DNA of 2,698 bases from Escherichia coli. Lineage in GTDB: Bacteria > Pseudomonadota > Gammaproteobacteria > Enterobacterales > Enterobacteriaceae. The notes beneath the pieces are model-generated. The model saw only the letters and a list, made by a program, of their open reading frames with translations, was not told where the DNA came from and ran no database searches. This document shows, piece after piece, positions 1-1,557 of this stretch. The stretch's first letter is position 1. Each line of letters opens with the position of its first letter. Location: the NCBI RefSeq assembly GCF_003334255.1, contig NZ_QOWU01000131.1; one strand, 5' to 3'. The position numbers were made by a program, and so were the translations under genes.

Positions 1-174
1 GCGTATCACGCGCAATACGACCCCAAATAAAGCAACCTGCCTTCCACCCCTCAATTCGGGCGCCCTTCCCTCGTCGCCTGCGCACTGCAATTGCCTCGTT
101 TTTCGTGCACCGTGCAAACCGGCCTCAGCCAGCGCCGTTACTGGGCTGAATGGGGATGAAACACATAAGAAAAA

Positions 175-819
175 TTGTGCAATTTCGTGCGCTTTTGTGC
201 ATTTTTTATCTTGCGATTTTTGGGGGTGGGTGGTGATGATAATCATCTGTCTGAATCAGTGGTGTATTGCCGGGTGAGAACTGTGAAAAATTACTCATAT
301 CCTTATTTAACTTTTGTCACGCTTTCTGTTTTGGGGGGGATTTTTCTTTTTATTTGGTGGCGAAACGATGTTTACAGAATTACCTACCTTTATTCGTTCA
401 CGACAAACTGCCTTGTTTCAGTGTCTGTGGTGCTTTCGGTTTTTGTCTCACTGTGCCTGTTGAAAAAGAACCTGGTTGATCGGTCTAAATTTACCGGGGT
501 TACATCGTATCTTAAGTTTTTTTCGGGTATGTGCCTTCTTACCTGGATGATTCTGTTTACCCTCCTGGTTACGCTGATATATTTTCTTCCGGGTGAAGAT
601 TCATTCTATTCCGCTCCCTATGAGTACAGTCGCGGTAGCTCAAAAAGTTGTTCAGGGGCATTTGTTGATGATCCTGATTTGCAAAAAACAATCTTTATTT
701 GCTACCCATACGGTGACTATCAGGATGGTAATGTGATTTATGTGAAGAAGCGTGTGAATGCGCTGGGTGCGGTGGTCACCTATGCATACGCGACAAGCGG
801 CCGATTTCGGTTTGACTGA
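175..819 (+). CDS. putative small multi-pass membrane protein (hypothetical); start codon uncertain
   Basis: Frame open for 214 codons with stop TGA at 817-819. Translation shows three hydrophobic stretches (YLTFVTLSVLGGIFLFIWW, LVSVSVVLSVFVSLCLL, CLLTWMILFTLLVTLIYFL) followed by a ~75-aa Tyr/Phe-rich hydrophilic C-terminal region. No in-frame ATG until 529-531; candidate starts are TTG 175 (no SD) and GTG 283 (weak SD-like GGGTGAG at 272-278). Composition is T-rich and A-poor: by hand count, G+C is 22/60 in 301-360 and 23/60 in 361-420, versus 32/60 in 1981-2040. That bias suppresses stop codons, so the N-terminal half could be open by chance; a second frame (267-479) is also open here. Confidence 0.4.
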   Translation: MCNFVRFCAFFILRFLGVGGDDNHLSESVVYCRVRTVKNYSYPYLTFVTLSVLGGIFLFIWWRNDVYRITYLYSFTTNCLVSVSVVLSVFVSLCLLKKNLVDRSKFTGVTSYLKFFSGMCLLTWMILFTLLVTLIYFLPGEDSFYSAPYEYSRGSSKSCSGAFVDDPDLQKTIFICYPYGDYQDGNVIYVKKRVNALGAVVTYAYATSGRFRFD

Positions 820-868: not shown

Positions 869-1186
869 TCATCGCCCGGTTCTTGAGCTGATAATGCTTT
901 GCGTCAGCAGCTGCCAGCCCTCTTTCTGTTGCCCGTACTTGTCCTGATACCTGTTTACCTGCAAGTTTCCGTGCACCAGAATCAGATCGCCTTTTCTGTG
1001 TTTTGCCAGTTCTTCGTGCTGCTTCCCGAATGAAATAAGGTAAAGCCACATTGTGGTTGGCTGTTCTGCGCCATGGCAGGGTAGTGATACCGCCAGTTGT
1101 GCCGTTGTGACGTTGGTTCCTTTGGTTGTTCTCCTTGTGTTCGGGTCTGCTGCCAGTCGTCCATCTGTTGCAACCTGTGTTGGCAT
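869..1186 (-). CDS. single-stranded DNA-binding protein-like OB-fold protein, short form without C-terminal acidic tail
   Basis: ATG at 1186-1184 is preceded by GGGAGA (1197-1192); stop TGA at 871-869. The 105-aa translation aligns by eye with the OB-fold core of E. coli SSB recalled from memory: VATDGRLAADPNTRR against VILVGNLGQDPEVRY, and WLYLISFGKQHEELAKHRKGDLILVHGNLQVNRYQDKYGQQK against [43 protein letters not shown]. The protein ends right after the OB domain, with no Gly/Gln/Pro linker and no acidic DDDIPF-type tip. This is fold-level resemblance only and has not been searched. Confidence 0.6.
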   Translation of the reverse strand: MPTQVATDGRLAADPNTRRTTKGTNVTTAQLAVSLPCHGAEQPTTMWLYLISFGKQHEELAKHRKGDLILVHGNLQVNRYQDKYGQQKEGWQLLTQSIISSRTGR

Positions 1187-1218: not shown

Positions 1219-1557
1219 TTAGATGACTGGCAGCTCTTCGCCAGCGCCGTAGATAAACAGAATTCTCTTCATGATTTCGCTGCGCTTGCAGGCTTCAATT
1301 ACGGACGGCTCTTGTTGCCATTCTGCCCGTTGCGCCAGCTCCAGTCGTTCCTTTTCCGTTGGCTTCCGGTAATGCGTTATCTTGTCCGTGTACCCGTCCA
1401 CAACCAGCAGCCCTTCGCGTACCATCTTTCCGGCGGCCTGATTAATGATGGTCCTTTTCACGCCCAGTTTTTCAACCAGCTCTGGTGCGCTGAAGCGTGC
1501 GTGCGTTTCCAGGTAGCGTAAAATGATTACCTTTCCGGTCATTCTGGGTGTCTTCAT
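1219..1557 (-). CDS. putative winged-helix / HTH DNA-binding protein (hypothetical regulator)
   Basis: ATG at 1557-1555 is preceded by a perfect AAGGAG (1570-1565) with a 7-nt spacer, and overlaps the upstream stop as ATGA. Stop TAA at 1221-1219. The 112-aa product begins MKTPRMTGKVIILRYLE. The segment SAPELVEKLGVKRTIINQAAGKMVREGLLVV looks like an HTH recognition helix plus wing, as in Lrp/MarR-like regulators. The ORF track extends the frame to an ATG at 1626, but that start lacks an SD and lies inside the upstream gene. Confidence 0.65.
   Translation of the reverse strand: MKTPRMTGKVIILRYLETHARFSAPELVEKLGVKRTIINQAAGKMVREGLLVVDGYTDKITHYRKPTEKERLELAQRAEWQQEPSVIEACKRSEIMKRILFIYGAGEELPVI

Follow-up and report, generated by a model that had tools for sequence, protein, structure and literature searches.

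The window, a 2,698-nt stretch of Escherichia coli DNA (contig NZ_QOWU01000131.1, assembly GCF_003334255.1), is matched over its full length in 22 complete E. coli genomes with 97–99% identity. In the matching loci, the genes on the left follow the order of lysis genes, head completion, gpM, P2-family major capsid protein, GPO scaffold, large terminase and portal protein. On the right are a hypothetical ORF (283–819), an SSB gene, a MarR-like wHTH gene, two small ORFs and the gene of replication endonuclease gpA; the remaining P2-like early region, integrase and dmsA are found beyond gpA, with the integrase and the chromosomal junction about 11–12 kb to the right of the region. The stop codon of the portal gene lies 170 bp to the left of the window, with a hairpin after it; given this position, the left part of the window represents portal-to-cargo intergenic DNA of a P2-family prophage. 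The cohesive-end site of phages P2 and 186 lies 160–190 bp past the portal stop. The gpQ–gpA interval of P2-like phages is a cos-proximal hotspot of variable and defence genes (PMC9122126), and the region is situated in just this interval: portal gene Q lies on its left, the cos-proximal variable locus with gpA on its right, and the genome has P2-type head and terminase genes. The terminase is homologous to that of P2, as indicated by sequence identity for the small subunit and by annotation for the large one: gpM of the prophage (WP_016237825.1) is 34% identical to P2 gpM (E-value 4e-34) and 55% identical to P88 gpM, and the gene annotated as large terminase immediately precedes the portal gene. 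A search for tRNA and tmRNA genes found none, so the region is not a tRNA-linked attachment site, and an Rfam search gave a single sub-threshold mir-84 match at 623–717, which is noise.

Hypothetical membrane protein WP_000801013.1 is encoded by the first cargo gene (283–819, plus strand) of the cos-proximal variable locus. Only residues 89–178 are matched by phrog_1416, and PADLOC shows no defence match for this ORF. Its start in RefSeq differs between genomes, being placed at window position 112 or 283, with the ATG at 530 as a further alternative; the start of the ORF and the status of 283–529 are uncertain. The annotated SSB (869–1186, minus strand) has only 105 aa and covers positions 89–188 of the 271-position phrog_44 profile; this SSB-like protein, whose gene closes the early operon, is short or truncated. 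The best match of the MarR-like wHTH protein (1219–1557, minus strand) is phrog_142, annotated as a Ren-like exclusion protein (E-value 1e-28), and its gene may have an exclusion or moron function instead of encoding a classical regulator. A candidate MarR homologue beside the cos of P88 was considered and rejected.

The left 260 bp have an unusual composition. A preliminary description of the window had listed a C-over-G bias and several short motifs in this part, and all its motif coordinates and base counts were reproduced: positions 1–120 contain 24 A, 48 C, 22 G and 26 T, and the palindrome GCAATTGC (87–94), GTGCAC (105–110), GTGCAA (112–117) and TGTGCA (176–181 and 196–201) are all present. 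The GC skew of 1–120 equals −0.37 and is among the most extreme of 1858 windows of 120 nt in the surrounding 18.7-kb locus; the five lowest skews of this locus are all located between window positions −19 and 140. A low skew is common to P2 and 186 (−0.41 over 160 nt) and absent in P4. The motif GTGCA occurs four times in 1–260, whereas dinucleotide shuffles would give 0.46 copies (P about 0.0005). A degenerate copy, GTGCG at 187, was overlooked in the preliminary description; with this middle copy, the TGTGCA pair turns out to be the outer units of a triple direct repeat with a 10-bp period. The resulting pattern, GTGCR-N5-GTGCR-N5-GTGCR at 177–201, is expected 0.01 times per whole window.

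Comparison with the cos sites of known phages accounts for these features. The cos site shared by P2, 186 and P4 was described by Ziermann and Calendar (1990), as cited in PMC9122126 and PMC5694545. The circular cos regions of P2, 186 and P4 were rebuilt by joining the ends of the records, placed in the orientation of the window and compared with the window, P88 and Enterobacter phage phiT5282H. A G+C-rich 19-nt sequence related to GGCGAGGCGGGGAAAGCAC is present at 60–78; this segment, GCGCCCTTCCCTCGTCGCC (reverse complement GGCGACGAGGGAAGGGCGC), is the predicted cosN. It agrees in 13 of 19 positions with the annotated cosL/cosR cohesive end of P2, GTGCTTTCCCCGCCTCGCC, read as the reverse complement. 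Both its position relative to the portal gene and its orientation are the same as in P2. The cut positions around 60–78 are predicted from this homology to an accuracy of about 2 nt, whereas the ends of P2, 186 and P4 are annotated experimentally. The pattern TTCCC.CGTC..CC is invariant at cosN in alignment A1, and each column of cosN carries 1.5–2.0 bits of information in 89 unique related loci. IMG/VR locus L102 contains CCCCGCCTCGCC, identical to P2, inside an otherwise window-like region, and this intermediate bridges the window-type and P2-type cosN. To the left of cosN, positions 1–59 are non-coding spacer DNA, rich in C and poor in G, that separates the portal gene from cos, as follows from the annotation of identical loci and the skew. 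The C-over-G skew of 1–120 reflects the C-rich cohesive-end core together with this C-rich spacer downstream of the portal gene. An imperfect inverted repeat at 21–35 and 211–225 (12/15; CCCCAAATAAAGCAA and TTGCGATTTTTGGGG) flanks the conserved cos block on both sides, probably by chance, since its right arm lies within cargo-specific DNA.

On the non-portal side of cosN, the flanking core, which corresponds to the published 55-bp core (PMC5694545, PMC5247547), comprises an inverted repeat, a T-run and RTGCA motifs, as in P2. The conserved sequence CCTGCGC(A/G)C (77–85) abuts cosN on the right and is the place where natural cos chimeras cross over; the A at position 84 is specific to the strain, all relatives examined having G there (GCGCGC). 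The palindrome GCAATTGC (87–94) occupies the slot of a lineage-variable inverted repeat in front of the T-run. This slot holds AAAAAACGCGTTTTTT in P88, CCGCCCgcttcacgGGGCGG in P2 and CCCGCtttGCGGG in P4, and a T-run comes next in all relatives. In L015, the equivalent of GCAATTGC is GCGATCGC, a symmetric double substitution that indicates the preservation of the palindrome itself. The expectation that the motifs recur in related loci is thus borne out for GTGCA, whereas GCAATTGC is kept as a palindrome only and not as a sequence. The T-run (99–103) is followed on the plus strand by proximal sites GTGCAC (105–110) and GTGCAA (112–117), the former being the conserved proximal site; TTTTT.GTGCA is invariant in alignment A1 and reaches 2.0 bits in the 89 unique loci. 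An inverted repeat, TCAGCC (125–130) and GGCTGA (144–149), overlaps the G-rich element GGGCTGAATGGGGA. A perfect spacer stem of at least 6 bp is found in 59% of GTGCA-type and 57% of ATGCA-type loci, compared with 9–12% of shuffles; the stem sequences vary among lineages, and GGGC.G.A is invariant among GTGCA-type phages in alignment A1. The last element (171–201, plus strand) consists of an A-tract and the triple direct repeat GTGCAA (177), GTGCGC (187) and GTGCAT (197), the units of which follow each other at intervals of one helical turn. In L013 and L015, the middle copy reads GTGCAC. Two candidate terminators at 177–202 were discarded as GTGC repeats pairing weakly, their number corresponding to the chance expectation.

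The spacing of (A/G)TGCA motifs is conserved across the six elements compared, with essentially unrelated sequences between the motifs in different groups. Counted from the end of the cos 19-mer, the motifs are located at +25, +97, +107 and +119 in P2, at +25, +97, +107 and +120 in 186 and P4, at +27, +99, +109 and +119 in P88 and phiT5282H, and at +27, +34, +99, +109 and +119 in the window. Like the window, the cos region of P2, 186 and P4 is bounded by portal gene Q on one side and by the end of the early or cargo region on the other, has homologous gpM and gpP terminase genes nearby and, in P2, includes a G+C-rich 19-nt core with 13 of 19 identical positions; it also shows the inverted repeat with T-run, RTGCA at +25/27, a spacer palindrome and the triple RTGCA at +97/99, +107/109 and +119/120. 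The differences concern the repeat unit, which is GTGCA in the window and ATGCA in P2, 186 and P4, and the first inverted repeat of these phages, which is replaced by the loop-less palindrome GCAATTGC. Relative to P2, the window also has six substitutions in the 19-mer, a spacing offset of 2 nt and an extra proximal copy at 112–117. P88-like phages (Xuanwuvirus) and phiT5282H share with the window the GTGCA-type repeats at identical spacing (+27, +99, +109 and +119), CCTGCGC, the T-run and the A-tract, and blastn aligns them to window positions 66–201/202 with 70–74% identity. Their cosN core, however, differs from that of the window (GCCCTTCCCTCGTCGCC versus GCTGTTCCCCCGTCACC), and their spacer palindromes are GGATCC/GGATCC or CCGCC/GGCGG instead of TCAGCC/GGCTGA. 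In the GenBank phage collection, the cos version of the window lineage is absent beyond partial matches of 71–74%.

The limits of conservation outline the same block. Distant E. coli prophages align to window positions 66–201 only. When IMG/VR was scanned for the pattern of the GTGCA triple, 120 loci were obtained, and a P2-type portal gene is present in 102 of them. In 89 unique IMG/VR loci, the information content rises to 2.0 bits per column at cosN, at the T-run with the proximal site and at the A-tract with the triple repeat, is lower in the spacers and drops from 2.0 to about 0.2 bits one base past the third repeat. At this point, as seen in 106 related loci, conservation collapses and variable cargo starts; the downstream sequences form 29–36 clusters versus one for the repeats. 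Close relatives L013–L015 match the window over 1–205/207 and are fully different from about 202–207 onwards, their cargo being a DUF4760 protein or a TumE/HVO_A0114 pair. In L016 and L017, segment 202–282 is kept together with the membrane ORF. Beyond the conserved cos block, 202–282 (plus strand) is therefore described as a cargo-specific leader of the downstream ORF, and the DNA from about 202 on is an exchangeable cargo module composed of this leader and ORF 283–819. Positions 264–270 read tgtattg in the window and ggagact in L001, a small strain-specific difference. In some relatives (L013–L015; 734–1237, minus strand), cos is separated from the portal gene by an additional hypothetical gene of 167 aa, so the portal side of cos is also able to gain DNA.

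The coding status of the region, ambiguous in the preliminary description, can now be resolved as non-coding. The reported TAA at 28–30 in plus-strand frame 1 and the minus-strand frame open from the ATG at 246 beyond the window start do exist. The latter belongs to an 84-codon ORF reaching from 246 to 9 nt left of the window, which RefSeq annotates in one genome; in others, the plus-strand membrane ORF is annotated from position 112, as if it had an N-terminal extension. Nevertheless, most identical loci bear no RefSeq annotation in the region, close relatives L013, L014 and L017 have a truncated minus-strand ORF or lack it, and the plus frame has stops at 28, 157 and 166; on these grounds, the region is read as non-coding. 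The conservation pattern also tracks the motifs, not codons, and in the virion chromosome the cut at cos would split either ORF. A coding function of the region has next to no probability. Leftward extension of the sequence, proposed earlier as a way of revealing the interior or 3′ end of a conserved gene, shows that the region is intergenic and not part of such a gene.

The repeats and palindromes had also been suggested to be operators, for example of the wHTH protein, or elements of a promoter for the membrane ORF. The motifs do lie 80–180 bp upstream of ORF 283–819, and in P2 the third ATGCA repeat overlaps the likely −35 element of the old promoter, as read from the annotated transcript starts, which lie about 35 bp farther downstream; a promoter role of the third repeat is possible in some phages. 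However, P2, 186, P4, P88 and phiT5282H all possess the motif architecture with no homologue of the wHTH/MarR protein beside cos, which speaks against its operators. The part of the suggestion that stands is that the GTGCA motifs are conserved and probably bind a protein. As for a promoter, the earlier failure to find a convincing −35/−10 pair was confirmed, since no sigma-70-like pair passed a promoter scan of window positions 1–282. The block is also unchanged in front of at least 29 (29–36) unrelated downstream sequences and different cargo genes, which contradicts a promoter within 1–201, and similar repeats persist in 76 of 80 P4-like satellites, which have no outward-reading gene at this place. 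An operator or promoter function of the repeats, whether served by the MarR-like wHTH protein or as a −35 element like that of the P2 old promoter, is very unlikely. Since no promoter was found in 1–201 and the block is constant before unrelated cargo, the promoter of ORF 283–819 is likely located in 202–282; reading of the sequence alone reveals weak candidate elements TTGCGA (211–216) and GATAAT (238–243).

The satellites are informative about the distal repeats. P4-like satellites with Psu 60–100% identical (L146–L225) contain ATGCAA-N4-ATGCAC-N7-ATGCAT at the same distance from cos in 76 of 80 cases, and psu converges on the repeats, with no gene transcribed outward. Satellites need the helper terminase for packaging and share only cos with their helpers (PMC9122126). 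The maintenance of the triple in satellites that have no outward gene points to the distal triple as part of the packaging signal and not of a cargo promoter. All 76 satellites with a detectable triple are of the ATGCA type, and no GTGCA-type P4-like satellite was found among the 80 loci, a search limited to close Psu relatives. The satellite 19-mer has either a P2-like (GTGCTTTCCCCGCCTCGCC) or a 186-like (ATGCTCTCCCCGCCACGCC) form, and satellite sequences become variable about 9 nt to the left of it.

Taken together, window positions 1 to about 205 are very probably the non-coding cos region of a P2-family (Peduoviridae, P88/Xuanwuvirus-related) E. coli prophage. This assignment is based on the genomic position, the homology and conserved spacing relative to the cos of P2, 186 and P4, the limits of conservation and the non-coding status; the exact nick positions, the protein that would bind the repeats and a possible need for the distal repeats in packaging are inferred. 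The cos identity explains both the odd base composition and the repeated GTGCA motifs. It also agrees with one of the possibilities raised in the preliminary description, that of an element junction: the region contains the predicted ends of the virion chromosome and, at about 202–206, the border between the phage backbone and exchangeable cargo. The cos of the P2 family is an already well-known kind of element, and the window is an ordinary further example.

The placement of the cut within this region has one competitor. The linear record LR595891.1 (P88_4B11; L006 position 1901, L009 position 1501) is broken inside the cos block, at about window position 157/158, between GGAAGGGCA and AAAATTCG. 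The homologous cosN lies about 75 bp to the left of this break, which separates the G-rich element from the triple repeat; the break reflects either the depositor's choice of start or the true virion ends of the P88_4B11 lineage. If the latter is the case, the true cut of the lineage could lie at the G-rich element (about 137–158) and not at 60–78. An arbitrary record start would fall within the 140-bp block with a probability of about 0.4%, and the invariance of GGGC.G.A among GTGCA-type phages would fit such a cut. However, the G-rich element has no counterpart in P2, while 60–78 is closer to the P2 cohesive end (13/19), with the same orientation and similar spacing to all four RTGCA sites, and is the most conserved part of the block apart from the repeats. 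Contig ends in IMG/VR, surveyed as a proxy for virion ends, are scattered with no preferred position. Record 500465-2 begins within the cargo, and P88_4B11 is the only one with its start inside cos. Finally, natural chimeras join their left and right arms at the right edge of 60–78. The comparison favours a cut at 60–78 over one at about 157, and cleavage at the G-rich element appears distinctly unlikely.

Two such chimeras were found. In L144 (E. coli S1-CAM-02-A, NZ_CP145707; 10812–14190), a prophage carries a complete chimeric cos in which the window-type left side and cosN are fused at CCTGCGCGC to a P88-type right arm, followed by a 2.5-kb three-gene cargo. Further on, at 14001–14190 (equivalent to window positions 93–282), there is a second window-type right arm that lacks cosN and is accompanied by the membrane ORF. 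The arrangement looks like a footprint of cargo exchange at cos. L112, an IMG/VR UViG, contains an independent chimera (about 9670–9830) of window-type cosN and P88-type right arm with the same CCTGCGCGC junction; its gpM is 77% identical to gpM of the window prophage.

Phage lambda offers a possible functional analogue of the cos organisation, with no homology of sequence or protein being claimed. The lambda cos consists of cosN and cosB; R3, IHF site I1, R2 and R1 are its elements, and the R sites are bound by the small terminase subunit gpNu1. P2, unlike lambda, is reported to package from monomeric circles. As predicted for the window, the nicking site of lambda has repeats on one side, one proximal and several distal, with an intervening element. 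By analogy, the following scheme can be proposed. During lytic growth, the phage terminase (small subunit gpM and large subunit gpP, encoded 1–6 kb to the left) would recognise the cos region and make two nicks 19 nt apart around 60–78, producing the 5′ cohesive ends of the virion chromosome, and the cut DNA would be pumped through the portal into the capsid. The elements to the right of the cut, namely the palindrome with the T-run, the sites at 105–117, the repeat at 125–149 and the triple at 177–201, would constitute the recognition part. They would be binding sites of the small terminase subunit, with the RTGCA sites positioning the terminase beside the cut like the lambda cosB R sites.

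That the repeats are terminase-recognition sites of the cosB kind is what we infer from this analogy, and the conserved spacing, the retention in satellites, the sharp conservation boundary and the 10-bp phasing are consistent with a recognition array. In the literature searched, which did not include the original 1990 cos paper, nothing relevant on a cosB in P2 or P4 was found. A conserved cos core of 55 bp is given in PMC5694545 and PMC5247547; the distal triple repeat is outside this core and may be dispensable for packaging. In all GTGCA-type loci with gpM in range, gpM belongs to the P88/window clade, a correspondence between repeat class and gpM clade that is confounded by shared ancestry. 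L030 has a near-identical triple repeat, though its gpM is just 28% identical, so perhaps a more conserved protein, possibly of the host, binds the repeats. It can be tentatively suggested, as a possibility of limited likelihood, that the proximal RTGCA, the spacer palindrome and the phased triple form a P2-family-wide terminase-recognition array extending beyond the 55-bp core and existing in at least two classes. With such an array, its class (ATGCA or GTGCA) could decide which helpers package which satellites, its outer edge may fix the boundary of the cos-adjacent defence-gene hotspot, and the natural cos chimeras L112 and L144 would be traces of cargo exchange across it.

A formerly ambiguous region is thereby an explainable phage element and not a new regulator site. 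The prediction supplies a cos for a prophage lineage that is lacking at this region in the GenBank phage collection, which is of modest value, and places the beginning of the variable cos-proximal defence locus exactly one base past the third repeat. If the repeat classes reflect terminase specificity, they would provide a simple sequence marker for the compatibility of helpers and satellites and could guide the design of P2/P4-based cosmid delivery vectors.
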